Positions 11,997 through 52,383 of a stretch of 64,000 bases of DNA are shown one piece after another. Position 1 is the first letter of the stretch; every line of letters begins with the position of its first letter. The DNA lies in NCBI RefSeq assembly GCF_058153355.1, contig NZ_CM177019.1; one strand, 5' to 3'. The notes beneath the pieces are model-generated. The model had not been told where the DNA came from. It did no database searches and worked only from the letters and a program-made list of their open reading frames with translations. A program made the translations under genes and the position numbers.

Positions 11997-13415
11997 ATGG
12001 TTACTATCAATACGGAATCTGCTTTAACGCCACGTTCTTTGCGGGATACGCGGCGTATGAATATGTTTGTTTCGGTAGCTGCTGCGGTCGCAGGATTGTT
12101 ATTTGGTCTTGATATCGGCGTAATCGCCGGAGCCTTGCCGTTCATTACCGATCACTTTGTGCTGACCAGCCGTTTGCAGGAATGGGTGGTTAGTAGCATG
12201 ATGCTCGGCGCAGCAATTGGTGCGCTGTTTAATGGGTGGCTGTCGTTCCGCCTGGGGCGTAAATACAGCCTGATGGCGGGGGCTATCCTTTTTGTGCTCG
12301 GTTCGATAGGGTCCGCTTTTGCGACCAGCGTAGAGATGTTAATCGCCGCTCGTGTGGTGCTGGGCATTGCTGTCGGGATCGCGTCTTACACCGCTCCTCT
12401 GTATCTTTCTGAAATGGCAAGTGAAAACGTTCGCGGTAAGATGATCAGTATGTACCAGTTGATGGTCACACTCGGCATCGTGCTGGCGTTTTTATCCGAT
12501 ACAGCGTTCAGTTATAGCGGTAACTGGCGCGCAATGTTGGGGGTTCTTGCTTTACCAGCAGTCCTGCTGATTATTCTGGTGGTCTTCCTGCCAAATAGCC
12601 CGCGCTGGCTGGCGGAAAAGGGGCGTCATATTGAGGCGGAAGAAGTGTTGCGTATGCTGCGCGATACGTCGGAAAAAGCGCGAGAAGAACTCAACGAAAT
12701 TCGTGAAAGCCTGAAGTTAAAACAGGGCGGTTGGGCACTGTTTAAGATCAACCGTAACGTCCGTCGTGCTGTGTTTCTCGGTATGTTGTTGCAGGCGATG
12801 CAGCAGTTTACCGGTATGAACATCATCATGTACTACGCGCCGCGTATCTTCAAAATGGCGGGCTTTACGACCACAGAACAACAGATGATTGCGACTCTGG
12901 TCGTAGGGCTGACCTTTATGTTCGCCACCTTCATTGCGGTCTTTACGGTAGATAAAGCAGGGCGTAAACCGGCTCTGAAAATTGGTTTCAGCGTGATGGC
13001 GTTAGGCACTCTGGTGCTGGGCTATTGCCTGATGCAGTTTGATAACGGTACGGCTTCCAGTGGCTTGTCCTGGCTCTCTGTTGGCATGACGATGATGTGT
13101 ATTGCCGGTTATGCGATGAGCGCCGCGCCAGTGGTGTGGATCCTGTGCTCTGAAATTCAGCCGCTGAAATGCCGCGATTTTGGCATCACCTGCTCAACGA
13201 CGACAAACTGGGTGTCGAATATGATTATCGGCGCGACCTTCCTGACACTGCTTGATAGCATTGGCGCTGCCGGTACGTTCTGGCTCTACACTGCGCTGAA
13301 CATTGCGTTTGTGGGCATCACTTTCTGGCTCATTCCGGAAACCAAAAATGTCACGCTGGAACATATCGAACGCAAACTGATGGCTGGTGAGAAGTTGAGA
13401 AATATTGGCGTCTGA
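11997..13415 (+). CDS. araE: Arabinose:H+ symporter (MFS sugar porter)
   Basis: ORF 11868..13415; native start taken at [30 protein letters not shown]... (472 aa), 12-TM MFS sugar transporter. Confidence 0.9.
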
Positions 13416-18144: not shown

Positions 18145-21511
<3,367 letters not shown>

Positions 21512-21542
21512 TATTTAACGCCGGTTTTAACCGGCGTTAATC

Positions 21543-22583
21543 TTATGGTGCCGGATAAGTATAAACCTGATGCACCGCTTCAATTTCAGCTAATACGTCT
21601 TCGCTTAACTCCAGATGCAAACTTTCGACGTTAGTTTTCAGCTGCTCCATCGTGGTTGCGCCCAGCAGAGTGCTGGCAACAAACGGTTGACGGCGTACAA
21701 AAGCGAGCGCCATCTGAGCAGGATCCAGGCCATGACGTCTGGCGATATCAACATACGCCGCGACGGCTTTTTGCGTTTGCTCACCGCTATAGCGGGTGAA
21801 CCGACTAAAGAGCGTATTACGTGCGCCAGCGGGTTTTGCACCGTTGAGATATTTCCCGGTCAGCGTGCCGAAACCCAGGCACGAATAGGCCAGCAGTTCG
21901 ACCCCTTCATACTGGCTGACTTCTGCCAGACCTACTTCAAAACTGCGGTTTAACAGACTGTAAGGGTTCTGAATGGTGACAATACGCGGCAGATCGTGTT
22001 TGTCCGCCAGATGCAGGTAGCGCATTACGCCAAATGCAGTTTCGTTCGACACGCCGATATAACGAATTTTCCCCGCGCGTTGGTACTCTGCCAGTGCGTC
22101 CAGCGTATCCAGCAGCGAAACCGCAGGGGCAGAATCTGTCCAGCTATAACCGAGTTTGCCGAAGCAGTTGGTTGGGCGCTGCGGCCAGTGCACCTGATAA
22201 AGATCGAGGTAATCAGTCTGCAGGTGCTTGAGGCTGTCATGCAGAGCTTCGCGGATATTCTTCCGATCCAGCGCCTGATCCGGGCGGATGCCCTTGTCAT
22301 TATTGCGCGACGGTCCGCTCACTTTGGAAGCGATAATTAACTTTTCGCGGCTGCCATGTTTTGCCAGCCAGTTGCCGACGTAGGTTTCGGTTAACCCTTG
22401 CGTTTCGGGGCGCGGAGGTACTGGGTACATTTCGGCAACGTCGATAAGGTTAATGCCCTGAGCGACGGCATAGTCGAGTTGTGCGTGGGCGTCGGCTTCG
22501 CTGTTCTGTTCACCAAACGTCATCGTGCCAAGCCCCAGCGTGCTGACTTCCAGCGAACTGTGGGGTATACGGTGATATTGCAT
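21543..22583 (-). CDS. tas: Aldo-keto reductase Tas
   Basis: 346-aa aldo/keto reductase family ORF. Confidence 0.9.
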   Translation of the reverse strand: MQYHRIPHSSLEVSTLGLGTMTFGEQNSEADAHAQLDYAVAQGINLIDVAEMYPVPPRPETQGLTETYVGNWLAKHGSREKLIIASKVSGPSRNNDKGIRPDQALDRKNIREALHDSLKHLQTDYLDLYQVHWPQRPTNCFGKLGYSWTDSAPAVSLLDTLDALAEYQRAGKIRYIGVSNETAFGVMRYLHLADKHDLPRIVTIQNPYSLLNRSFEVGLAEVSQYEGVELLAYSCLGFGTLTGKYLNGAKPAGARNTLFSRFTRYSGEQTQKAVAAYVDIARRHGLDPAQMALAFVRRQPFVASTLLGATTMEQLKTNVESLHLELSEDVLAEIEAVHQVYTYPAP

Positions 22584-31751: not shown

Positions 31752-34700
31752 ATGTTAAGGGTCTACCATTCCAATCGTCTGGACGTGCTGGAAGCGTTGA
31801 TGGAGTTTATTGTCGAACGCGAACGGCTGGACGATCCTTTCGAACCAGAGATGATTCTGGTGCAAAGTACCGGTATGGCGCAGTGGCTGCAAATGACCCT
31901 GTCGCAAAAGTTTGGTATTGCGGCAAACATTGATTTTCCGCTGCCAGCGAGCTTTATCTGGGATATGTTCGTCCGGGTGTTACCGGAGATACCCAAAGAG
32001 AGCGCCTTTAACAAACAGAGCATGAGCTGGAAACTGATGACTCTGCTGCCGCAATTGCTGGATCGCGAAGACTTTACCCTGTTGCGGCATTATCTGACTG
32101 ACGATAGCGACAAGCGAAAACTGTTCCAGCTTTCCTCTAAAGCGGCGGACCTGTTTGACCAGTATCTGGTCTATCGCCCGGACTGGCTGGCACAGTGGGA
32201 AGCCGGGAATCTGGTAGAAGGACTTGGAGAGGCGCAGGCCTGGCAAGCGCCGTTGTGGAAGGCGCTGGTGGAATATACCCATCAACTCGGGCAACCGCGC
32301 TGGCACCGCGCCAATCTCTATCAGCGCTTTATCGAAACGCTGGAGTCCGCGACGACCTGCCCGCCGGGGTTACCTTCGCGCGTCTTTATATGCGGTATTT
32401 CCGCGTTACCGCCTGTTTATCTCCAGGCGCTACAGGCGCTGGGTAAACATATTGAAATCCATCTCCTGTTTACCAACCCCTGCCGTTATTACTGGGGCGA
32501 CATTAAAGATCCTGCTTATCTGGCGAAACTGCTGACTCGCCAGCGCCGACACAGTTTTGAAGATCGCGAATTACCGCTATTTCGCGACAGCGAAAATGCC
32601 GGGCAGCTCTTTAACAGCGATGGTGAACAGGATGTCGGCAACCCGCTGCTGGCCTCATGGGGCAAGCTTGGGCGCGACTACATTTATCTCCTTTCTGATC
32701 TGGAGAGCAGCCAGGTGCTGGACGCTTTTGTCGATGTGACGCCAGATAACCTGCTGCATAACATTCAGTCTGACATTCTGGAACTGGAGAACCGCGCCGT
32801 TGCGGGTGTGAACATCGAAGAGTTTTCCCGTAGCGATAACAAACGCCCTCTTGATCCACTGGATAGCAGTATCACCTTCCACGTTTGCCATAGCCCGCAG
32901 CGTGAAGTTGAAGTTTTACACGATCGCTTGCTGGCGATGCTGGAGGAAGACCCGACACTGACTCCGCGCGACATCATCGTGATGGTGGCCGACATCGACA
33001 GCTACAGTCCGTTTATTCAGGCTGTGTTTGGTAGCGCACCTGCGGATCGTTACCTGCCTTACGCCATTTCCGACCGTCGGGCGCGGCAGTCGCATCCGGT
33101 ACTGGAAGCGTTTATCAGCCTGTTATCACTGCCTGACAGCCGATTTGTGTCGGAAGACGTGCTGGCATTACTGGATGTGCCGGTGCTGGCGGCGCGGTTT
33201 GACATCACCGAAGAAGGGCTGCGTTATTTACGTCAGTGGGTCAACGAGTCCGGCATTCGTTGGGGGATAGATGACGATAACGTTCGCGAGCTGGAACTTC
33301 CCGCCACCGGTCAACACACCTGGCGGTTTGGCCTGACGCGCATGTTGCTGGGCTACGCGATGGAAAGCGCGCAGGGCGAGTGGCAATCGGTTCTGCCTTA
33401 TGATGAATCGAGCGGCTTAATTGCAGAACTGGTGGGGCATCTGGCTTCACTGCTAATGCAGCTAAACATCTGGCGTCGCGGGCTGGCGCAGGAGCGTCCG
33501 CTGGAAGAGTGGTTGCCGGTTTGTCGCGATATGCTCAACGCCTTCTTCCTGCCGGATGCGGAAACCGAAGCGGCGATGACGCTGATCGAACAACAATGGC
33601 AGGCGATTATCGCCGAAGGTTTAGGTGCGCAGTATGGCGACGCGGTGCCGTTGTCACTATTGCGTGATGAACTGGCACAACGTCTGGATCAGGAACGTAT
33701 CAGCCAGCGTTTTCTCGCCGGGCCGGTTAACATTTGTACTCTGATGCCAATGCGTTCCATCCCATTCAGAGTGGTTTGCCTGCTGGGAATGAACGACGGC
33801 GTTTACCCACGCCAGCTTGCGCCATTGGGCTTTGACCTGATGAGTCAGAAACCGAAACGCGGCGACCGTAGCCGTCGCGATGACGACCGCTATCTGTTCC
33901 TGGAAGCGTTAATTTCCGCGCAGCAAAAACTTTATATCAGCTATATCGGGCGTTCCATTCAGGATAACAGTGAACGTTTCCCGTCGGTACTGGTGCAGGA
34001 ACTGATCGACTACATCGGGCAAAGCCATTATCTACCGGGCGATGAAGCGCTCAATTGTGATGAAAGCGAGGCGAGGGTAAAAGCGCATCTTACTTGCCTC
34101 CATACCCGGATGCCGTTTGACCCGCAAAACTACCAGCCCGGTAACTTACAAAGCTATGCGCGCGAGTGGCTACCCGCGGCCAGTCAGGCAGGTAAGGCGC
34201 ATTCTGAATTTGTTCAGCCGCTGCCGTTTACCTTGCCGGAAACCGTGCCGCTGGAGACGCTACAACGATTCTGGGCGCATCCGGTGCGGGCGTTTTTCCA
34301 GATGCGCTTGCAGGTGAACTTCCGTACCGAAGATAGCGAAATTCCCGACACCGAACCTTTTATTCTTGAAGGGCTTAGTCGTTATCAAATCAACCAGCAG
34401 TTATTGAATGCTCTGGTCGAGCAAGATGATGCCGATCGCTTATTCCGCCGCTTCCGGGCGGCAGGGGATTTACCGTATGGCGCTTTTGGTGAAATTTTCT
34501 GGGAAACACAGTGCCAGGAGATGCAGCAGCTTGCCGACAGAGTCATTGCCTGTCGCCAACCGGGGCAAAGTATGGAAATTGATCTCGCCTGCAACGGTGT
34601 GCAAATAACGGGTTGGTTGCCGCAGGTGCAGCCGGATGGCCTGTTACGCTGGCGTCCCTCTTTATTAAGTGTGGCGCAGGGAATGCAACTTTGGCTGGAA

Positions 34701-35120
34701 CACCTTGTCTACTGTGCCAGCGGTGGTAATGGTGAAAGTCGCCTTTTTCTACGCAAAGACGGCGAGTGGCGTTTTCCGCCGCTTGCAGCCGAACAGGCTT
34801 TACATTACCTCTCAGAACTGATTGAGGGGTATCGTGAAGGGATGTCCACGCCGCTGCTGGTGTTACCTGAAAGTGGCGGCGCGTGGCTAAAAACCTGTTA
34901 TGACGCGCAAAACGATGCCATGCTGGATGACGATTCCACGTTGCAAAAAGCCCGTACGAAATTCCTTCAGGCTTACGAAGGCAACATGATGGTGCGTGGC
35001 GAAGGTGATGATATCTGGTATCAACGGCTCTGGCGGCAATTAACACCAGAGACAATGGAAGCCATCGTTGAACAGTCGCAACGTTTCCTGTTACCGCTGT
35101 TTCGCTTTAATCAGTCATGA
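31752..35120 (+). CDS. recC: Exodeoxyribonuclease V gamma subunit RecC
   Basis: 1122-aa ORF matching RecC (MLRVYHSNRLDVLEALMEFIV…). Confidence 0.95.
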   Translation: MLRVYHSNRLDVLEALMEFIVERERLDDPFEPEMILVQSTGMAQWLQMTLSQKFGIAANIDFPLPASFIWDMFVRVLPEIPKESAFNKQSMSWKLMTLLPQLLDREDFTLLRHYLTDDSDKRKLFQLSSKAADLFDQYLVYRPDWLAQWEAGNLVEGLGEAQAWQAPLWKALVEYTHQLGQPRWHRANLYQRFIETLESATTCPPGLPSRVFICGISALPPVYLQALQALGKHIEIHLLFTNPCRYYWGDIKDPAYLAKLLTRQRRHSFEDRELPLFRDSENAGQLFNSDGEQDVGNPLLASWGKLGRDYIYLLSDLESSQVLDAFVDVTPDNLLHNIQSDILELENRAVAGVNIEEFSRSDNKRPLDPLDSSITFHVCHSPQREVEVLHDRLLAMLEEDPTLTPRDIIVMVADIDSYSPFIQAVFGSAPADRYLPYAISDRRARQSHPVLEAFISLLSLPDSRFVSEDVLALLDVPVLAARFDITEEGLRYLRQWVNESGIRWGIDDDNVRELELPATGQHTWRFGLTRMLLGYAMESAQGEWQSVLPYDESSGLIAELVGHLASLLMQLNIWRRGLAQERPLEEWLPVCRDMLNAFFLPDAETEAAMTLIEQQWQAIIAEGLGAQYGDAVPLSLLRDELAQRLDQERISQRFLAGPVNICTLMPMRSIPFRVVCLLGMNDGVYPRQLAPLGFDLMSQKPKRGDRSRRDDDRYLFLEALISAQQKLYISYIGRSIQDNSERFPSVLVQELIDYIGQSHYLPGDEALNCDESEARVKAHLTCLHTRMPFDPQNYQPGNLQSYAREWLPAASQAGKAHSEFVQPLPFTLPETVPLETLQRFWAHPVRAFFQMRLQVNFRTEDSEIPDTEPFILEGLSRYQINQQLLNALVEQDDADRLFRRFRAAGDLPYGAFGEIFWETQCQEMQQLADRVIACRQPGQSMEIDLACNGVQITGWLPQVQPDGLLRWRPSLLSVAQGMQLWLEHLVYCASGGNGESRLFLRKDGEWRFPPLAAEQALHYLSELIEGYREGMSTPLLVLPESGGAWLKTCYDAQNDAMLDDDSTLQKARTKFLQAYEGNMMVRGEGDDIWYQRLWRQLTPETMEAIVEQSQRFLLPLFRFNQS

Positions 35121-35295: not shown

Positions 35296-38219
35296 ATGCC
35301 CCGCAGCACCTGGTTCAAAGCATTATTGTTGTTTGTTGCCCTTTGGGCACCCTTAAGTCAGGCAGAAACGGGATGGCAGCCGATTCAGGAAACCATCCGT
35401 AAAAGTGATAAAGATAACCGCCAGTATCAGGCTATACGTCTGGATAACGGTATGGTGGTTTTGCTGGTTTCTGACCCGCAGGCGGTTAAATCGCTCTCGG
35501 CGCTGGTGGTGCCCGTTGGGTCGCTGGAAGATCCCGAGGCATACCAGGGGCTGGCACATTACCTTGAACATATGAGTCTGATGGGTTCGAAAAAGTACCC
35601 GCAGGCTGACAGTCTGGCTGAATACCTCAAAATGCACGGCGGCAGCCACAATGCCAGCACGGCACCGTATCGCACGGCTTTCTATCTGGAAGTTGAGAAC
35701 GACGCCTTACCCGGTGCGGTAGACCGCCTGGCCGATGCTATTGCTGAACCCTTGCTCGACAAGAAATACGCCGAACGTGAGCGTAATGCGGTGAACGCTG
35801 AATTAACCATGGCGCGTACGCGTGATGGGATGCGCATGGCACAGGTCAGCGCAGAAACCATTAACCCGGCACACCCAGGTTCAAAGTTTTCTGGTGGTAA
35901 CCTCGAAACTTTAAGCGATAAACCCGGCAATCCGGTACAGCAGGCGCTGAAAGATTTCCACGAGAAATATTACTCTGCCAATCTGATGAAGGCGGTTATC
36001 TATAGCAAGAAGCCGCTACCGGAGCTGGCGAAGATGGCTGCTGATACTTTCGGTCGCGTGCCGAACAAAGAGAGCAAAAAACCGGAAATCACTGTGCCGG
36101 TAGTCACCGACGCGCAAAAGGGCATTATCATTCATTACGTCCCGGCGCTGCCGCGTAAAGTTCTGCGCGTTGAGTTTCGCATCGATAACAATTCAGCGAA
36201 GTTCCGTAGTAAAACGGATGAATTGATTACCTATCTGATTGGTAATCGCAGCCCAGGTACACTTTCTGACTGGCTGCAAAAGCAGGGATTAGTTGAGGGC
36301 ATTAGCGCCAATTCCGATCCTATCGTCAACGGCAACAGCGGCGTATTAGCGATCTCTGCGTCTTTAACCGATAAAGGTCTGGCGAATCGCGATCAGGTTG
36401 TGGCGGCCATTTTTAGCTACCTCAATCTGTTACGCGAAAAAGGGATTGATAAACAATACTTCGATGAACTGGCGAATGTGCTGGATATCGACTTTCGTTA
36501 TCCGTCAATCACCCGTGATATGGATTACGTCGAATGGCTGGCAGATACCATGATTCGCGTTCCTGTTGAGCATACGCTGGATGCAGTCAATATTGCCGAT
36601 CGGTACGATGCTAAAGCAGTAAAAGAACGCCTGGCGATGATGACGCCGCAGAATGCGCGTATCTGGTATATCAGCCCGAAAGAGCCGCATAACAAAACGG
36701 CTTATTTTGTCGATGCTCCGTATCAGGTCGATAAAATCAGCCCACAAACTTTCGCTGACTGGCAGAAAAAAGCCGCCCACAAACTTTCGCTGACTGGCAG
36801 AAAAAAGCCGCCAATATTGCGCTCTCCTTACCGGAGCTTAACCCTTATATTCCTGACGATTTCTCGCTGATGAAGTCAGAGAAGAAATACGACCATCCAG
36901 AGTTGATTGTGGATGAGGCGAATCTGCGCGTGGTGTATGCGCCGAGCCGTTATTTTGCCAGCGAGCCTAAAGCCGATGTCAGCCTGATTTTGCGTAACCC
37001 GAAAGCCATGGACAGCGCCCGCAATCAGGTGATGTTTGCGCTTAATGATTATCTTGCCGGACTGGCGCTTGATCAGTTAAGCAACCAGGCGTCGGTTGGT
37101 GGCATAAGTTTTTCCACCAATGCTAACAACGGCCTTATGGTTAATGCCAATGGTTACACCCAGCGCCTGCCGCAGCTGTTCCAGGCTCTGCTGGAGGGCT
37201 ACTTTAGCTATACCGCTACGGAAGAGCAGCTTGAGCAGGCGAAGTCCTGGTATAACCAGATGATGGATTCCGCAGAAAAGGGCAAAGCGTTCGAGCAGGC
37301 GATTATGCCCGCGCAGATGCTCTCGCAAGTGCCGTACTTCTCGCGAGATGAACGGCGCAAAATTTTGCCTTCAATCACTTTGAAAGAGGTGCTGGCCTAT
37401 CGCGACGCCTTAAAATCAGGGGCTCGACCAGAGTTTATGGTTATTGGCAACATGACCGAAGCCCAGGCAACAAAGCTGGCACGCGATGTGCAAAAACAGT
37501 TGGGCGCTGATGGTTCGGAGTGGTGTCGTAACAAAGATGTCGTGGTCGATAAAAAACAATCCGTCATCTTTGAAAAAGCCGGTAACAGCACCGACTCCGC
37601 ACTGGCAGCGGTATTTGTACCGACTGGCTACGATGAATACACCAGCTCAGCCTATAGCTCTCTGCTGGGGCAGATCGTACAGCCGTGGTTCTACAATCAG
37701 TTGCGTACCGAAGAACAGTTGGGCTATGCCGTGTTTGCGTTTCCAATGAGCGTGGGACGTCAGTGGGGCATGGGCTTCCTGTTGCAAAGCAATGATAAAC
37801 AGCCTTCATTCTTGTGGGAGCGTTACAAGGCGTTTTTCCCAACCGCAGAGGCAAAATTGCGGACGATGAAGCCAGAAGAGTTTGCGCAAATCCAGCAGGC
37901 GGTAATAACCCAGATGCTGCAGGCACCGCAAACGCTCGGCGAAGAAGCATCGAAGTTAAGTAAAGATTTCGATCGCGGCAATATGCGCTTCGATTCGCGT
38001 GATAAAATCGTGGCCCAGATAAAACTGCTGACGCCGCAAAAACTTGCTGATTTCTTCCATCAGGCGGTGGTCGAGCCGCAAGGCATGGCTATTCTGTCGC
38101 AGATTTCCGGCAGCCAGAACGGGAAAGCCGAATATGTGCATCCTGAAGGCTGGAAAGTGTGGGAGAACGTCAGCGCGTTGCAGCAAACAATGCCCCTGAT
38201 GAGTGAAAAGAATGAGTGA
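35296..38219 (+). pseudogene. ptrA: Protease III (pitrilysin, M16 family) disrupted by a 35-bp tandem duplication frameshift at 36742-36811
   Basis: Two consecutive ORFs (35296..36870, 36870..38219) together cover Ptr; HxxEH zinc motif (HYLEHM) in the N-terminal part; direct repeat CCACAAACTTTCGCTGACTGGCAGAAAAAAGCCGC occurs twice in tandem. Confidence 0.8.
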
Positions 38220-41200
38220 TGTCGCCGAGACACTAGATCCTTTGCGCTTGCCCTTACAGGGCGAGCGCCTGATTGAAGCCTCTGCCGGCACAGGCAAAAC
38301 CTTTACGATTGCGGCGCTCTATTTGCGCCTGTTACTTGGACTAGGCGGTTCTGCCGCCTTTCCCCGCCCGCTGACCGTTGAAGAACTGCTGGTGGTGACC
38401 TTTACCGAGGCTGCCACGGCAGAATTGCGCGGTCGTATCCGTAGCAATATCCACGAGTTGCGCATCGCCTGTCTGCGTGAAACCACCGACAATCCACTGT
38501 ACGAACGCCTGCTGGAAGAGATCGACGATAAAGCGCAAGCCGCGCAGTGGTTGTTGTTAGCCGAACGGCAGATGGATGAAGCGGCAGTCTTTACTATTCA
38601 CGGTTTTTGCCAGCGCATGCTCAACTTGAATGCCTTTGAATCCGGCATGCTGTTTGAGCAGCAGCTGATTGAAGATGAGTCTCTGCTACGCTACCAGGCC
38701 TGCGCCGATTTCTGGCGTCGCCACTGCTACCCGCTGCCGCGTGAAATTGCCCAGGTGGTCTTTGAAACCTGGAAAGGGCCGCAGGCGTTGCTGCGCGATA
38801 TTAATCGTTATCTGCAAGGCGAAGCACCGGTTATCAAAGCACCGCCGCCCGATGATGAAACGCTGGCTTCCCGCCACGCGCAAATTGTGGCGCGTATTGA
38901 TACGGTAAAACAGCAGTGGCGCGACGCAGTGGGTGAACTGGATGCGCTGATCGAATCTTCTGGTATTGATCGACGCAAGTTTAACCGTAGCAATCAGGCT
39001 AAATGGATCGAGAAGATCAGTGCCTGGGCAGAAGAAGAGACCAACAGTTATCAGTTACCGGAGTCGCTGGAAAAATTCTCTCAGCGTTTCTTAGAAGATC
39101 GCACGAAAGCCGGGGGGGAAACCCCGCGACATCCACTGTTTGAGGCGATCGATCAACTGCTTGCAGAACCATTGTCGATCCGTGATCTGGTGATCACCCG
39201 CGCATTGGCTGAGATCCGCGAAACAGTAGCGCGTGAAAAACGCCGCCGTGGCGAATTGGGTTTTGATGACATGTTAAGTCGGCTCGATTCCGCGCTGCGT
39301 AGCGAAAGCGGCGAGGTGTTGGCAGCGGCGATCCGTACGCGATTCCCGGTGGCAATGATTGATGAATTTCAGGATACCGACCCCCAGCAGTACCGAATAT
39401 TTCGCCGTATCTGGCACCATCAACCGGAAACTGCATTGTTGCTGATTGGCGACCCGAAACAGGCTATATATGCATTCCGTGGAGCGGATATCTTCACTTA
39501 TATGAAGGCGCGTAATGAAGTTCACGCGCACTACACCTTAGACACCAACTGGCGCTCAGCACCTGGAATGGTGAACAGCGTGAATAAGCTTTTCAGCCAG
39601 ACTGATGACGCGTTCATGTTTCGCGAAATACCATTTATTCCAGTGAAATCAGCCGGCAAAAATCAGGCGTTACGTTTTGTATTTAAAGGTGAAACGCAGC
39701 CTGCGATGAAAATGTGGCTGATGGAAGGCGAAAGCTGCGGCGTTGGCGATTATCAAAGTACCATGGCGCAGGTATGTGCTGCGCAAATCCGCGACTGGCT
39801 ACAAGCCGGACAGCGGGGCGAAGCGTTGCTGATGAACGGCGACGACGCGCGTCCGGTGCGTGCTTCGGACATCAGTGTGCTGGTGCGCAGCCGCCAGGAG
39901 GCCGCTCAGGTGCGCGATGCCTTAACGCTGCTGGAAATCCCTTCCGTTTACCTTTCGAACCGCGACAGTGTTTTTGAAACTCTGGAAGCGCAGGAGATGC
40001 TTTGGCTGTTGCAGGCGGTGATGACACCAGAACGTGAGAACACCCTGCGCAGTGCGCTGGCAACGTCAATGATGGGGCTGAATGCGCTGGATATTGAAAC
40101 GCTGAATAATGACGAACATGCGTGGGATGCGGTAGTCGAAGAGTTCGATGGTTATCGGCAAATCTGGCGCAAACGTGGCGTTATGCCGATGCTGCGGGCG
40201 CTGATGTCGGCGCGTAACATTGCAGAAAACTTGCTGGCAACAGCAGGCGGTGAGCGGCGTCTTACCGATATCTTGCATATCAGCGAATTGCTACAAGAAG
40301 CCGGAACGCAGCTGGAAAGTGAACATGCGCTGGTACGCTGGTTATCGCAACATATCCTCGAGCCAGACAGTAATGCCTCCAGCCAACAAATGCGTCTCGA
40401 AAGTGATAAACATCTGGTGCAGATTGTCACGATCCACAAATCGAAAGGGCTGGAATATCCATTGGTCTGGCTGCCGTTTATCACCAATTTCCGCGTCCAG
40501 GATCAGGCGTTTTATCACGATCGCCACTCGTTTGAGGCTGTTCTGGATCTTAATGCTGCGCCAGAAAGCGTCGACCTCGCGGAGGCCGAACGTCTGGCGG
40601 AAGATCTGCGTTTGCTTTACGTGGCGCTGACGCGTTCGGTTTGGCATTGCAGTCTCGGCGTTGCACCGCTGGTGCGCCGTCGTGGCGATAAAAAAGGTGA
40701 CACCGACGTCCACCAAAGTGCGCTCGGGCGTTTGCTGCAAAAAGGGGAACCGCAAGATGCGGCAGGGCTTCGCACCTGTATTGAAGCGTTATGCGATGAT
40801 GATATTGCCTGGCAAACGGCACAAACTGGTGATAACCAGCCCTGGCAGGTTAATGATGCTTTAACTGCAGAACTGAATGCGAGGACGCTACAACGATTGC
40901 CCGGCGATAACTGGCGTGTCACCAGCTACTCCGGTTTGCAGCAGCGTGGTCACGGTATCGCTCAGGATCTGATGCCACGGCTGGATGTTGATGCCGCAGG
41001 CGTGGTCAGCGTCGTTGAAGAACCGACGTTAACACCGCATCAGTTCCCGCGTGGTGCGTCACCAGGGACGTTTTTGCACAGTTTGTTTGAAGACCTCGAT
41101 TTTACCCAGCCGGTTGACCCGAACTGGGTACAGGAAAAACTGGAACTCGGCGGCTTTGAATCGCAGTGGGAACCAGTGTTGACCGAGTGGATCACGGCTG

Positions 41201-41754
41201 TCCTCCAGGCACCTCTCAATGAAACGGGTGTTAGCCTGAATCAGCTTTCCGACCGCGATAAACAGGTGGAGATGGAGTTTTACCTGCCGATTAGTGAACC
41301 GCTCATCGCCAGCCAGCTTGATGCACTAATTCGCCAGTTTGATCCGCTATCCGCTGGCTGCCCGCCGCTGGAGTTCATGCAGGTACGCGGCATGTTAAAA
41401 GGCTTTATCGACCTGGTATTCCGCCACGAAGGGCGTTATTACCTGCTCGACTATAAATCCAACTGGCTGGGTGAAGACAGTTCGGCTTATACCCAACAGG
41501 CTATGGCAGCGGCGATGCAGGCACACCGCTATGATCTGCAATATCAGCTTTATACCCTGGCGCTGCATCGTTATCTGCGCCATCGCATTGCTGATTACGA
41601 CTATGATCGTCACTTTGGCGGCGTTATCTATCTGTTCCTGCGTGGCGTTGATAAAGAACATCCGCAACAAGGGATTTACACAACCCGACCCAACGCCGGG
41701 TTGATTGACCTGATGGATGAGATGTTTGCCGGTATGACCCTGGAGGAGGCGTAA
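38212..41754 (+). CDS. recB: Exodeoxyribonuclease V beta subunit RecB (helicase-nuclease)
   Basis: [30 protein letters not shown]… Walker A; ~1180 aa. Confidence 0.95.
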
Positions 41755-43580
41755 TGAAATTGCAAAAGCAATTACTGGAAGCTGTGGAGCACAAACAGCT
41801 ACGCCCGCTGGATGTGCAATTTGCCCTGACCGTGGCGGGAGATGAACATCCTGCCGTCACCCTCGCGGCAGCCCTGTTAAGCCACGACGCCGGGGAAGGG
41901 CATGTCTGTTTACCGCTCTCACGACTGGAAAATAACGAGGAGTCACATCCGCTGTTAGCAACCTGCGTCAGCGAAATTGGTGAGTTACAAAATTGGGAAG
42001 AATGCTTGCTGGCTTCACAAGCGGTCAGCCGGGGAGATGAACCAACGCCGATGATCCTCTGTGGTGATCGTCTTTATTTGAATCGCATGTGGTGTAACGA
42101 GCGCACAGTGGCACGCTTTTTCAACGAAGTGAATCATGCCATTGAGGTTGATGAAGCTCTACTGGCGCAAACCCTGGACAAACTTTTTCCAGTAAGCGAT
42201 GAAATTAACTGGCAAAAAGTGGCGGCGGCAGTGGCGCTGACGCGGCGGATCTCGGTGATTTCCGGCGGCCCTGGCACCGGTAAAACGACCACCGTAGCGA
42301 AGTTGCTGGCAGCGTTAATTCAAATGGCAGACGGCGAACGCTGCCGTATCCGTCTGGCTGCACCAACGGGTAAAGCTGCCGCGCGCTTAACCGAATCTCT
42401 CGGCAAGGCTTTGCGCCAGTTACCGCTGACCGATGAACAAAAGAAACGCATTCCGGAAGATGCCAGCACTTTGCACCGATTGCTGGGTGCGCAGCCGGGT
42501 AGCCAGCGTTTACGTCATCATGCCGGTAACCCGCTGCATCTTGATGTGCTGGTGGTAGATGAAGCGTCAATGATCGATCTGCCTATGATGTCGAGACTGA
42601 TCGACGCCTTGCCCGATCATGCGCGAGTGATCTTTCTCGGCGATCGTGATCAACTGGCCTCGGTTGAGGCTGGGGCTGTGCTGGGCGATATCTGCGCTTA
42701 TGCCAACGCGGGCTTTACCGCCGAGCGTGCCGGGCAGTTGAGCCGCCTGACGGGAACTCACGTTCCGTCAGGAACTGGCACAGAAGCGGCATCTTTGCGC
42801 GACAGTCTCTGCCTGCTGCAAAAAAGCTATCGTTTCGGCAGCGATTCTGGCATTGGTCAGTTAGCTGCGGCGATCAACCGTGGTGATAAAACGGCAGTGA
42901 AAACCGTTTTTCAGCAGGATTTTACTGATATCGAAAAACGGCTTTTACAGAGCGGCGAAGACTATATTGCGATGCTTGAGGAGGCTCTTGCGGGTTACGG
43001 GCGTTATCTGGATCTGCTGCAAGCGCGTGCCGAGCCGGATTTAATCATTCAGGCGTTCAATGAATACCAGCTTTTGTGCGCCCTGCGGGAAGGGCCGTTT
43101 GGCGTGGCTGGATTGAATGAGCGAATTGAGCAGTTTATGCAACAGAAGCGCAAAATTCATCGTCATCCGCACTCACGCTGGTACGAAGGCCGGCCGGTAA
43201 TGATTGCCCGCAATGACAGCGCGCTTGGGTTGTTTAATGGTGATATCGGCATTGCGCTGGATCGTGGGCAGGGGACGCGCGTCTGGTTTGCGATGCCGGA
43301 TGGCAATATTAAGTCTGTGCAACCGAGCCGCCTGCCAGAACACGAAACCACGTGGGCGATGACGGTACATAAATCGCAGGGATCGGAGTTTGACCATGCG
43401 GCGTTGATTTTACCGAGCCAACGCACGCCAGTTGTAACGCGAGAGCTGGTTTACACTGCGGTGACCCGCGCGCGTCGCCGTCTGTCGTTGTATGCCGATG
43501 AGCGCATATTAAGTGCGGCAATCGCCACTCGTACTGAGCGGCGCAGTGGTCTGGCGGCGTTGTTTAGTTCGCGGGAATAA
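41754..43580 (+). CDS. recD: Exodeoxyribonuclease V alpha subunit RecD
   Basis: 608-aa ORF with Walker A ([10 protein letters not shown]). Confidence 0.95.
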
Positions 43581-46804: not shown

Positions 46805-46879
46805 TCTTGTAACTGTTAAATCAGGCAAGGCAATGTTTGAAGTAATTATTACTTCTGACGTGCCTTGCCTTTTTTTTTG
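46805..46879 (+). promoter_or_regulatory. Putative RAT (ribonucleic antiterminator)-like element overlapping an intrinsic terminator, leader of the accessory PTS operon
   Basis: TCTTGTAACTGTTAAATCAGGCAAGGC resembles BglG/LicT RAT consensus (GGATTGTTACTG…GCAGGCAAAACC); overlapping hairpin AGGCAAGGCA…TGCCTTGCCT followed by T9. Confidence 0.55.
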
Positions 46880-46889
46880 GAGCTATGGA

Positions 46890-47714
46890 ATGATCATCGA
46901 AAAAGTCATGAACAATAATTGTGTACAGGCATCGATGAATGGACAGGAGGTTATCATTTCTGGGCCTGGCGTCGGTTACAACAAAAAATATGGAATGTCG
47001 GTCCCTGAGCATCCGGCTAACCGGATTTTTTATGTCAGAAATGAACAAAAAAATAAACTCTACAAATTGATTGAACATGTGGATATTGAGTATGTTTTTG
47101 TTGCCGAAAAAATAGTGCAATATGCGGAGAACAATCTCGAAAAAAATCTCAATCCATCGCTACTATTGATTCTTGCTGATCATATTTCGAATGCAATATC
47201 CCGAGTCGCTTCAGGCATACAAATTAATAATGTTTTCCTTGATGAAATCAAAGCGTTGTACAAAGCAGAGTATGCGATAAGTCGCGATGCATTAACTATC
47301 ATTAATGAGCAATTCAGCGTTCAACTTCCTGATGATGAGATTGGTTTTATAGCATTGCATATTTTAAATAATTATGAAAATTCAGTTGATTATGAATCAG
47401 TACGGATTATTGAGTTGTCGCAAATAATCACGGGGCTTATTGAAGTTGTTTATAACAGAAAGGTGGACAGAAGTTCATTTAATTATTCCAGGTTCATGAT
47501 ACACCTTAAATATTTTTCAAGTCGCGTATTATGCAATGAAAAAATAAAACAGAAAGATATTGGTGATCTCTATGAACAGTTTCTTGAGAAAGACATTCTG
47601 TTACAGCGCGCAATTCATGAAATTGAAAGGTATTTGTACGCCACTTTTAAATATGAATTGATTTTGGAAGAAAAACTATATCTCTCTATTCGCACCAAAG
47701 TATTAATGGACTAA
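46890..47714 (+). CDS. BglG/LicT-family transcription antiterminator (CAT RNA-binding domain + PRD domains)
   Basis: ORF 46833..47714; start placed at ATG 46890 with GGAG 8 nt upstream; N-terminal CAT-like region (MIIEKVMNNNCVQASMNGQEVIISGPGVGY…) and PRD-like segments; AT-rich. Confidence 0.75.
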   Translation: MIIEKVMNNNCVQASMNGQEVIISGPGVGYNKKYGMSVPEHPANRIFYVRNEQKNKLYKLIEHVDIEYVFVAEKIVQYAENNLEKNLNPSLLLILADHISNAISRVASGIQINNVFLDEIKALYKAEYAISRDALTIINEQFSVQLPDDEIGFIALHILNNYENSVDYESVRIIELSQIITGLIEVVYNRKVDRSSFNYSRFMIHLKYFSSRVLCNEKIKQKDIGDLYEQFLEKDILLQRAIHEIERYLYATFKYELILEEKLYLSIRTKVLMD

Positions 47715-47745: not shown

Positions 47746-49326
47746 ATGAAACAAAAGAAAGCCTGGAGTTTTTTTCAGAGCCTGGGAAAGGCATTTATGT
47801 ATCCCATCGCTCTGCTAAGTGTATGTGGCATGATGTTAGGGCTAGGAAGTGGTTTAGCCAGCGATGATATGGCAAAATTAATTCCACTACTGGCTATTCC
47901 CGTAATTAAAACCATTCTTGATTTTATTGTTAGCCTTGGTTTGTTTGCCTTTGTCAATTTACCTGTATTGTTTGCGATAGCTATACCTCTGGGGTTATTA
48001 AAAGAGAAAGAGGATAAAGCCTATGGCGCTTTTTCTGGCTTAATTGGTTTCATGGCGATGCATCTGGGAACGAACTTTTATCTTAAACAACATGACTTAT
48101 TGGTCGCTGCTGATCAAATGTCGACACATGGGCAAACCATTATTCTGGGAATCCAGTCCTACAATACCAGTGTGTTGGGTGGGATTATAGCAGGATTATT
48201 AGTCGCCAGTATGTATAAAAAGATCGTTAACTTACGTATTCCTGAATCATTAGGATTTTATAGTGGCCCACGCCTGGTGCCTATTATTACACTGATTGTG
48301 ATGAGCGGATTTGGTCTGATCATCCCTTTTATCTGGCCGCCATTTTTCAATCTTTTCATGCTCATTGGCCACTGGATTTCAACTTCCGGTCCTGTTGGCT
48401 ATTTTTTCTATGCAGTCGCCGAACGCGTGACGATACCTTTTGGTTTAAATCACCTGGTGACGTCAGTTTTCCGCTTTACCCCCATCGGCGGATCGGCAGT
48501 GATCGGCGGAGAAGAGTATTATGGCACCCTGAACATGTTTATGGCGTACGTCAAAGAGAATGCGGTCATTCCGCTGGATTTGGCGGGGAAAATGGAACAG
48601 GGCAAACTGATGATTCAGTATGGTCTGGCTGGTGCCGCGCTGGCGATGTATCGCACTGCTCATGCTCAAAACAGAAAAGCTATCAAAGCATTGCTTATTT
48701 CCGGGGTGCTTACAGTCATTATTGGCGGCGTCAGCGAACCGATTGAGTTTCTGTTCTTATTTGTCAGTCCACTGCTATTTGTCTTCCATGCTTTTATGAA
48801 TGGATTCGCCAACATGGTCTTGCCATATATGGGCGTGAAGATGGGATTTACTGGCGATCTGATTCAATTTATTAGCTTTGGCGTATTGCGTGGCACAAGA
48901 ACAGGTTGGCCAATAGCGGTGTGTGTCGAAGTGGCCTATTTCTTTATTTATTACTTTGTGTTCCGTTGGACTATTCTCAAATTTAACCTGATGACGGTAG
49001 GCCGTGAAGAGTCCAGTCCTGTCACGCTGAACGCTCATGAGGATACGGCTATAGCGGATATCCCAACGCTTGATAAATCAGAGCTGCAAGCAGCGGAGCA
49101 GATGGTTAAGGCACTTGGTGGTAAAGAGAATATTAAATCCCTGGATAATTGCGTAACTCGTTTACGTTTAACAATCGCAGATATGGGATTGATTGACGAG
49201 GCAGCAATAAAAAGAGCTGGCGGAATTGCGGTTGTTAAACTTGATCAAAATACCCTACAAGTCATTATCGGTACTAAAGTCATCGCCTTGCGTCGGGATA
49301 TGGATAACTACATGGGGATATGCTGA
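47746..49326 (+). CDS. PTS EIICB component, glucose/maltose (MalX-like) family
   Basis: 526-aa ORF, multi-TM EIIC followed by a C-terminal EIIB domain with phosphorylatable Cys motif (NCVTRLRL). Confidence 0.85.
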   Translation: MKQKKAWSFFQSLGKAFMYPIALLSVCGMMLGLGSGLASDDMAKLIPLLAIPVIKTILDFIVSLGLFAFVNLPVLFAIAIPLGLLKEKEDKAYGAFSGLIGFMAMHLGTNFYLKQHDLLVAADQMSTHGQTIILGIQSYNTSVLGGIIAGLLVASMYKKIVNLRIPESLGFYSGPRLVPIITLIVMSGFGLIIPFIWPPFFNLFMLIGHWISTSGPVGYFFYAVAERVTIPFGLNHLVTSVFRFTPIGGSAVIGGEEYYGTLNMFMAYVKENAVIPLDLAGKMEQGKLMIQYGLAGAALAMYRTAHAQNRKAIKALLISGVLTVIIGGVSEPIEFLFLFVSPLLFVFHAFMNGFANMVLPYMGVKMGFTGDLIQFISFGVLRGTRTGWPIAVCVEVAYFFIYYFVFRWTILKFNLMTVGREESSPVTLNAHEDTAIADIPTLDKSELQAAEQMVKALGGKENIKSLDNCVTRLRLTIADMGLIDEAAIKRAGGIAVVKLDQNTLQVIIGTKVIALRRDMDNYMGIC

Positions 49327-50501
49327 TGGATGTTTTTAATACTCCTATTTCCCGCAAAGGAACATATTGTACCCAATGGGACTTTTGCGAGGACAGATTT
49401 GGTGTAAAAGATGTATTACCATTCTCTATTTCAGATATGGATCTTCCGATACCGGAAGCTATCATCAGGGCATTAAGAAAACGTCTGGAACACCCGATTT
49501 TAGGGTACAGCCGTTGGCAGCATGATGACTATCTGAATGCGATAGTCAATTGGTATCATCAACAATATAAAACTGAAATCAAACCAGAATGGATCACCTA
49601 TAGCCCAAGCGTGATGTACTCCATTGCTAAAGCAATAGAGTTATTGACATCGCATGGTGATAATATTCTCGTTTTTACACCTGTCTATAATGCATTTTTT
49701 GATATAATTAAACATAGCGAGAGAAATATTCTGACAGCCTCTTTGATTATAAAAAATGAGGGGGGCTACGCTATCAATTGGCAAGATTTTGATCTTAAGA
49801 TTCAAAGCGCAAAGATGGTGTTATTATGTAATCCTCATAACCCGACAGGAACCGTCTGGTCGGAAGAAGAGCTGCATAAAATCGCTGCAAGCTGTGCAAG
49901 ACATAATGTCTGGTTATGTTCAGATGAAATTCACAGTGATTTTGTTTTTAATCGTAGCTTTACATCTGCGCTTAAAATAAAAAAAGAAAAAGTAGTGGTG
50001 TTTAATTCGATATCGAAGACATTTAATGTTCCTGCGCTAACAGGATCGTATATGATTTCAACTGACGATAATTTTAATCATAAGTTCAGAACGATATCAA
50101 GATATCGCGATTTTGTAAACTCCCCATCCGTACTGAATATAATTGCAACTATTATTGCCTATAACGAATGTGAGGGATGGTTAACGTCATTAAAGGCACA
50201 TATTGCCTCTAACATTCAATTCACCCAGCAGTATCTGAACGAAAATACTCCAGAATTGATCGTAAGGCCAGCTGATGGTTGCTATTTTTCGTGGATAGAT
50301 TGCTCTGCTATTGGTTATCCCTTTGATGAATTCTACAGTCGATTAATTCATGAAGGCAAAGTGGGCATTATGGCGGGGAATGTCTATGGAACGGAGGGGG
50401 AGGGCTACCTTCGTCTGAACCTGGCCTGCGGTCGAGAAAAATTATATATGGGGCTTACGCGTCTTGCGAGTGTAATTAAAAATATTAATCAAGGAAAATA
50501 A
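49320..50501 (+). CDS. PLP-dependent C-S lyase / aminotransferase, MalY/PatB-like paralog
   Basis: Conserved blocks shared with MalY: TYCTQWDF, LPFSISDMD, GYSRW, CNPHNPTG, SDEIH, NSISKTFNVPALTG (PLP lysine). Confidence 0.8.
   Translation: MLMDVFNTPISRKGTYCTQWDFCEDRFGVKDVLPFSISDMDLPIPEAIIRALRKRLEHPILGYSRWQHDDYLNAIVNWYHQQYKTEIKPEWITYSPSVMYSIAKAIELLTSHGDNILVFTPVYNAFFDIIKHSERNILTASLIIKNEGGYAINWQDFDLKIQSAKMVLLCNPHNPTGTVWSEEELHKIAASCARHNVWLCSDEIHSDFVFNRSFTSALKIKKEKVVVFNSISKTFNVPALTGSYMISTDDNFNHKFRTISRYRDFVNSPSVLNIIATIIAYNECEGWLTSLKAHIASNIQFTQQYLNENTPELIVRPADGCYFSWIDCSAIGYPFDEFYSRLIHEGKVGIMAGNVYGTEGEGYLRLNLACGREKLYMGLTRLASVIKNINQGK

Positions 50502-52196: not shown

Positions 52197-52273
<77 letters not shown>

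Positions 52274-52306: not shown

Positions 52307-52383
<77 letters not shown>

Follow-up and report, generated by a model that had tools for sequence, protein, structure and literature searches.

Introduction

The pitrilysin of Escherichia coli (PtrA, also known as protease III; MEROPS M16A) is a homologue of the human insulin-degrading enzyme. In the latter, the catalytic chamber is bounded on its other side by the C-terminal half, without which activity is not normal. E. coli tolerates the loss of pitrilysin without a severe growth defect, and ptr-deficient strains, often also deficient in degP and ompT, have been engineered for the production of secreted proteins. Tandem duplications, for their part, are known to be both gained and collapsed at high rates, and direct repeats flanking a unit are the classical set-up for the slipped-strand realignment of a nascent strand that leads to such a duplication. 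On the chromosome, ptrA, recB and recD belong to one polycistronic operon, in which the ribosome-binding site of recB lies within ptrA and for which translational coupling has been suggested (PMC12342828).

Here, we study a disrupted ptrA locus (positions 35296–38219, plus strand) found in a stretch of 64,000 nucleotides, the whole of which is hereafter called the window. A first-pass annotation had interpreted this locus as a ptr gene inactivated by a perfect 35-bp tandem duplication, due either to a recent strain-specific pseudogenisation or to an assembly artefact. According to our analyses, this configuration very probably goes back to one mutation, which occurred very recently in a single E. 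coli clone and duplicated 35 bp of ptrA, most likely by replication slippage; pitrilysin activity is expected to be lost or nearly lost as a result.

Results

Judged from its sequence, the window belongs to E. coli and includes the recC-ptrA-recB-recD region. It is about 99% identical over 11 kb to complete E. coli chromosomes in which recC, ptrA (pitrilysin), recB and recD are annotated, and the sole length difference over this comparison from recC to recD amounts to 35 bp (10,966 vs. 11,001). The gene order is recC (31752–35120), ptrA, recB (38212–41754, plus strand) and recD (41754–43580), the flanking ORFs encoding RecC (1,122 aa), RecB and RecD. When one copy of the duplicated unit is deleted in silico, the ptrA locus becomes a single ORF of 962 aa with one terminal stop, in agreement with the continuous reading frame described in the first-pass annotation. 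This restored protein is identical to two NCBI entries named “pitrilysin [Escherichia coli]” (EGO8352889.1 and HFG3508774.1); it is also matched over residues 24–962 by “Protease III” of PDB entry 1Q2L (2096 bits), the mature chain of which starts at residue 24, and by the human insulin-degrading enzyme (E ~1e-110). The identification of the gene as ptr/ptrA (protease III) is thus secured by these exact pitrilysin matches, by 1Q2L and by the position of the gene between recC and recB.

Pfam domains were located on the restored protein: Peptidase_M16 (residues 54–191, E = 2.9e-38), M16_C (216–395) and M16_M (400–675), followed in the C-terminal part by a second M16_C (681–857) and PqqF-like_C_4 (778–875). 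The inverted zinc-binding HXXEH motif takes the form HYLEH (residues 88–92) and lies inside the N-terminal Peptidase_M16. While the four-domain architecture of about 960 aa that characterizes M16A is complete in the restored sequence, it is interrupted at residue 494 in the sequence as written, which makes the gene a disrupted member, i.e., a pseudogene, of the pitrilysin/M16A family. The lesion lies inside Peptidase_M16_M, upstream of the second M16_C and of PqqF-like_C_4. The break falls between the N-terminal pair and the C-terminal pair of M16 domains.

The 35-nt unit CCACAAACTTTCGCTGACTGGCAGAAAAAAGCCGC is present twice head-to-tail, at 36742–36776 (copy 1) and 36777–36811 (copy 2, the extra copy), both on the plus strand. 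The two copies, which had been described as perfect, are indeed identical by direct comparison, and Tandem Repeats Finder reports a period of 35 with 2.3 copies at the same place. No further copy of the unit was found on either strand of the 64-kb window, and the number of perfect 35-nt tandem repeats expected by chance over such a length is about 5e-17. The identity at period 35 extends over 36740–36812, i.e., 73 nt rather than 70, which means that each border of the unit carries a 3-bp GCC microhomology: on the left at 36740–36742, and again at 36775–36777 and 36810–36812.

Owing to the duplication, the ptrA locus is 2,924 nt long in the window vs. 2,889 nt in its relatives. The duplicated unit codes for residues 483–494, within M16_M. 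Copy 1 is translated in the native frame (...PQTFADWQKKAA), whereas copy 2 is read out of frame as HKLSLTGRKKPP...; altogether, copy 1 is followed by HKLSLTGRKKPPILRSPYRSLTLIFLTISR and by the TGA at 36868–36870. Since 35 is not divisible by 3, the native frame is lost after residue 494 and a stop is reached 30 codons later. As written, ptrA therefore consists of two plus-strand ORFs, and the sizes and stop position given in the first-pass annotation agree with the ORF list. The first ORF (35296–36870, 524 aa) is made of 494 native residues and of a 30-aa out-of-frame tail, and includes the signal peptide, HYLEH and the M16 and M16_C domains. The second (36870–38219, 449 aa) resumes the native ptrA frame and encodes the C-terminal half, which has no signal peptide; at the 3' end of this ORF, 8 nt are shared with the start of recB. 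At the boundary between the two ORFs, the premature TGA and an in-frame ATG, corresponding to Met514 of intact PtrA, overlap as TGATG (36868–36872).

Regarding the origin of the duplication, the ancestral sequence reads ...ATCA-GCC-CACAAAC...AAAAAAGCC-GCC-AATATT..., with one GCC opening the unit and a second directly following it. During replication, the nascent strand would have realigned between these two GCC triplets, 35 nt apart, and slippage across GCC is the most likely cause of the duplication. The features expected from such an event are all present: perfect head-to-tail copies, a single copy in relatives and microhomology at the borders. A hairpin or quasi-palindrome that would promote slippage was sought in the ancestral DNA and none was found (z = −0.12); given this and the shortness of the microhomology (3 bp), the mechanism is proposed on conventional grounds only. 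Because a perfect 35-bp repeat can also collapse precisely through reverse slippage, as is well established, the lesion is potentially reversible.

The taxonomic distribution of the allele shows that it is unique to one E. coli clone. A 601-bp query across the site has matches in 5,424 of the 5,426 complete E. coli genomes, and all the matches listed (30/30) span 566 bp, corresponding to one copy of the unit. Conversely, a 46-mer across the junction between the two copies has no match in these 5,426 complete genomes, none among the GTDB species representatives (one genome per species) and none in the JGI metagenome contigs. At the protein level, exact-sequence look-ups have neither the 524-aa nor the 449-aa product on record, and the out-of-frame tail, when used as a query for similarity, recovered only fragments due to unrelated indels in other assemblies, none of them with the QKKAAHKLSLTGRKKPP tail. 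As a side observation, public assemblies hold numerous short “proteins” corresponding to pieces of ptrA from around the same region, generated by indels of 1–2 nt; several of these are filed under the unrelated genera Curtobacterium, Acinetobacter and Pseudomonas, a sign that such records may suffer from E. coli contamination or from error-prone assembly.

The comparison with related genomes, which the first-pass annotation had recommended, was carried out on assemblies sharing the exact RecC or RecB of the window. All seven have one copy of the unit and an intact 962-aa ptrA. The exact RecC look-up led to a Logan contig of SRR8656992, in which ptrA is an intact 962-aa ORF and from which the window minus one copy differs by 2 SNPs in 15,369 bp. 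The exact RecB look-up returned six contigs, five of which (ERR8574105, GCA_053701275.1, GCA_043012465.1, DRR791116 and SRR28786219) carry a 962-aa ptrA with a single unit. Among these, GCA_043012465.1, which also encodes exactly the restored PtrA, and SRR28786219 are 4 SNPs away from the window, while ERR8574105, GCA_053701275.1 and DRR791116 are about 1% divergent. Overall, the four closest relatives (among the SRR8656992, GCA_043012465.1 and SRR28786219 loci) differ by 2–4 SNPs over about 11.5–15.5 kb. Besides, GCA_015332025.1 shows 1 mismatch in 22,160 bp when compared to the window at 8166–30325. The remainder of the window is collinear with its relatives and contains no other frameshifting indel. 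As relatives only a few SNPs away have one copy, the duplication must have arisen after the divergence of the isolate from them. That the four near-identical relatives are single-copy with an intact ptrA supports the first of the two explanations originally put forward, i.e., a recent strain-specific pseudogenisation.

Several other differences were noted in the window and its relatives. Positions 1–740 are 95.5% identical to the end of an IS2-family (IS3-like) element, which directly abuts a 3'-truncated ygeH (ORF 691–1845, minus strand), which covers only positions 1–370 out of the 458 in the YgeH profile. Compared to NZ_CP169309.1, the window lacks about 6.2 kb coding for ETT2 type III secretion (eprH/prgH-like, needle, sctI, escJ-like, orgA-like and others), and the whole looks like an IS2-associated deletion within a degenerate ETT2 island. 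Two tandem tRNA-Met(CAT) genes lie on the minus strand (52197–52273 and 52307–52383) where NZ_CP098223.1 has three, a 110-bp copy-number difference in a metZWV-type array; GCA_000190995.1 appears to have two copies as well. An extra gene of 551 aa (DUF4140/DUF4139) is found between lplT and tas in some otherwise close E. coli genomes (CP043414.1 and ERR8574105; 13385–15040 in the related loci compared), and is absent from the window (site at 21511–21547) and from GCA_015332025.1. Compared to NZ_CP098223.1, recC has two compensating 1-nt gaps 4 nt apart (34143–34147), with the frame kept and RecC still 1,122 aa long. Other genes are split in relatives but intact in the window: the PRD-domain antiterminator (104 aa + 152 aa in ERR8574105, 14504–15328; window 46833–47714) and the MalY/PatB-family aminotransferase (224 aa + 149 aa in GCA_000190995.1, 11575–12755; window 49320–50501). 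A genome decay of the Shigella type was considered and rejected, as positions 12001–60890 of the window are IS-free and collinear with E. coli, and as the proteins match entries named E. coli. Similarly, fucI, which appears as a short ORF at the right end, was rejected as a second lesion, since the gene simply runs off the window without an in-frame stop.

An independent assembly of reads bears on whether the duplication is genuine or an error of assembly. The sixth contig with the exact RecB, the Logan contig SRR31441161_204, is 100% identical to the window over 6,944 bp and starts at 36783. It was predicted beforehand that the same run would contain an upstream contig ending at 36769 with a partial ptrA of 491 codons. 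The exact look-up of this 491-aa product yielded one contig only, SRR31441161_59 (36,058 bp), which ends exactly at 36769 and follows the window over 7,474 nt without a single mismatch. When a de Bruijn graph of the window is simulated at k=31, branch nodes are observed only at the 30-mers 36740–36769 (two incoming edges) and 36783–36812 (two outgoing edges), while the single-copy allele produces zero branch nodes. Logan contigs are built from 31-mers, each of which is represented a single time per accession; singleton k-mers are dropped, and Minia3 removes tips and bubbles (PMC12424806). Since the contig ends coincide with the predicted branch nodes, each junction 31-mer must occur two times or more in the reads of SRR31441161. 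This run may be the read set of the window itself, so that the evidence comes from another assembler but perhaps from the same library. Consequently, the duplication is present in the DNA and not in the assembly alone, and the artefact evoked in the first-pass annotation is largely excluded, the k=31 assembly of SRR31441161 being broken at both of the nodes that the duplication predicts.

A k=31 graph is blind to the difference between two and more copies, and it looks the same for a pure population and for a mixture of one-copy and two-copy cells. The duplication might then be real but confined to a subpopulation, for instance one that emerged during culture outgrowth, with intact and duplicated ptrA side by side; the occurrence of the allele in only one clone and the high rates at which tandem duplications come and go would fit such a situation. 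Yet, the assembler of the window followed the path with two copies, as would be expected if junction-spanning reads were in the majority, and the bubble and tip removal of Minia3 would tend to discard a low-frequency variant. We therefore consider a mixed population improbable.

Under the preferred reading of a recent duplication in one clone, the exported product would be an N-terminal fragment of pitrilysin, composed of the signal peptide, the catalytic M16 domain with its HXXEH motif and the first M16_C, and would be devoid of the C-terminal half, by which the catalytic chamber is closed in M16A enzymes. Owing to this missing half and to the homology with the insulin-degrading enzyme, a strong loss of function is expected, and pitrilysin activity is predicted to be lost or nearly lost. 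As ptrA is the first cistron of its operon, the effect could extend beyond the protease. RecB (1,180 aa, identical to that of relatives) and RecD are both intact, and the premature stop lies 1,341 nt upstream of recB. Through polarity or uncoupling, the amounts of RecB and RecD might nevertheless be lowered, unless ribosomes re-initiate at TGATG and so remain on the message.

Two features of the sequence may allow some translation past the lesion. First, copy 2 brings AGA AAA AAG into the frame of the ribosome, and thereby the heptamer A_AAA_AAG (36801–36807, plus strand) in the X|XXY|YYZ phase, i.e., in phase 2 relative to the ptrA start. A −1 slip at this heptamer is precisely the shift required by an insertion of 35 nt and restores the native frame, yielding a PtrA of 974 aa that differs from the intact protein only by a 12-residue insertion. 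In E. coli, stimulator-free frameshifting at A_AA.A_AA.G amounts to about 0.3%, and does not exceed about 3.7% even in the most favourable 3' context (PMC4066793). No stimulatory RNA structure was detected in the 83 nt downstream, the fold of which is no better than that of shuffled sequences (z = −0.8), and no SD-like stimulator is evident by inspection upstream of the heptamer. Moreover, the in-phase heptamer exists because of the duplication alone and is not conserved, no other searched genome carrying the duplication. Hence, with such a low basal rate and without downstream structure, the heptamer may provide a small translational leak, but not a rescue.

Second, the ATG at 36870 (Met514) results from a lineage-specific Ile-to-Met change, the codon being ATT in other E. 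coli, including four of the loci compared, among them ERR8574105. It is this ATT-to-ATG change that creates the TGATG stop/start overlap with the frameshifted ORF. No SD sequence precedes this ATG, and re-initiation there is possible and would produce the 449-aa C-terminal half. Without a signal peptide, this half would stay in the cytoplasm and could not complement there the N-terminal half, which is exported.

Taken together, these features might make the duplication a leaky and reversible off-state, in which collapse of the repeat, −1 slippage and TGATG re-entry would respectively restore the gene, let some protein through and protect recB and recD from polarity or uncoupling. We put this forward tentatively, as the less likely side of the matter. 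If true, a precise collapse would return ptrA to the wild type, a little full-length PtrA with the 12-residue insertion would be made, and TGATG re-entry would keep the downstream 1.3 kb translated.

A stronger version of the same idea would have the split itself be functional, with two halves translated separately by way of the TGATG overlap, with −1 slippage giving useful activity, or with the repeat acting as a deliberate phase-variable switch. The in-phase heptamer of the second copy with its 974-aa product, the existence of TGATG and the position of the break between the two pairs of M16 domains would all be compatible with such a design. The low frameshifting rate (PMC4066793) and the lack of stimulators speak against it, as do the missing signal peptide of the 449-aa half and the missing SD sequence at its ATG, and the absence of the repeat from every other genome searched leaves no sign of a selected switch. 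A functional split appears very improbable, and we keep to a predicted inactivation of ptrA.

Discussion

The ptrA gene of the window is best understood as the recent casualty of one slippage-type event. The least credible alternative is a one-copy genome in which contigs overlapping by 35 nt were joined untrimmed or locally misassembled, for although such joins are known to leave perfect short tandem duplications behind and all other databases searched lack the allele, the independent k=31 contigs of SRR31441161 break exactly at 36769 and 36783 where a single-copy genome would have no branch, six other Logan/NCBI assemblies of relatives read through the site, and the window has no other odd indels when compared to near-identical relatives. 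From a practical point of view, this makes the locus a genuine pseudogene call for annotators, with no error to fix, and it illustrates how, when the reads themselves are not at hand, the exact ends of public k=31 Logan contigs can still testify at the read level to a short tandem duplication. For users of the isolate, the loss of periplasmic pitrilysin is predicted, and RecBCD levels could change as well, since ptrA comes first in the operon and harbours the recB ribosome-binding site (PMC12342828). Beyond this strain, the importance of the lesion is little: it is an ordinary, strain-specific and probably reversible knockout, in which only the chance in-phase heptamer, the TGATG overlap and the connection to recB through the operon stand out to some degree.

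When set against described systems, the locus resembles each of them in part. At A_AAA_AAG, it shares with programmed −1 frameshifting of the dnaX/IS3 type the heptamer itself, its correct phase and a shift into a long productive frame. It differs in that neither an SD-like stimulator nor a stable hairpin was found, and in being accidental, limited to one strain and not conserved. The heptamer may therefore work like a weak frameshift site, but not like a programmed one, for which both stimulators and conservation would be needed. Regarding the predicted outcome for the cell, i.e., the loss of pitrilysin, it is comparable to the ptr-deficient E. coli strains engineered for protein secretion, except that those are laboratory constructs, whereas the allele of the window is spontaneous and belongs to a wild-type-like lineage with ETT2 remnants and an IS2 copy. 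With respect to E. coli pitrilysin (1Q2L), the restored protein is the same in sequence, HYLEH motif, domains and synteny, and the difference lies in the gene of the window being frameshifted after residue 494, while it is intact in every other genome examined. Finally, the lesion has all the traits of slipped-strand tandem duplications such as those known from E. coli lacI, i.e., perfect copies, a repeat at the border, a one-copy ancestor and a length not divisible by 3. Nothing about it is unusual in this respect, apart from a microhomology of just 3 bp and no favouring secondary structure. It is a previously unrecorded allele of a well-known kind, a slippage-type duplication that frameshifts a dispensable gene.
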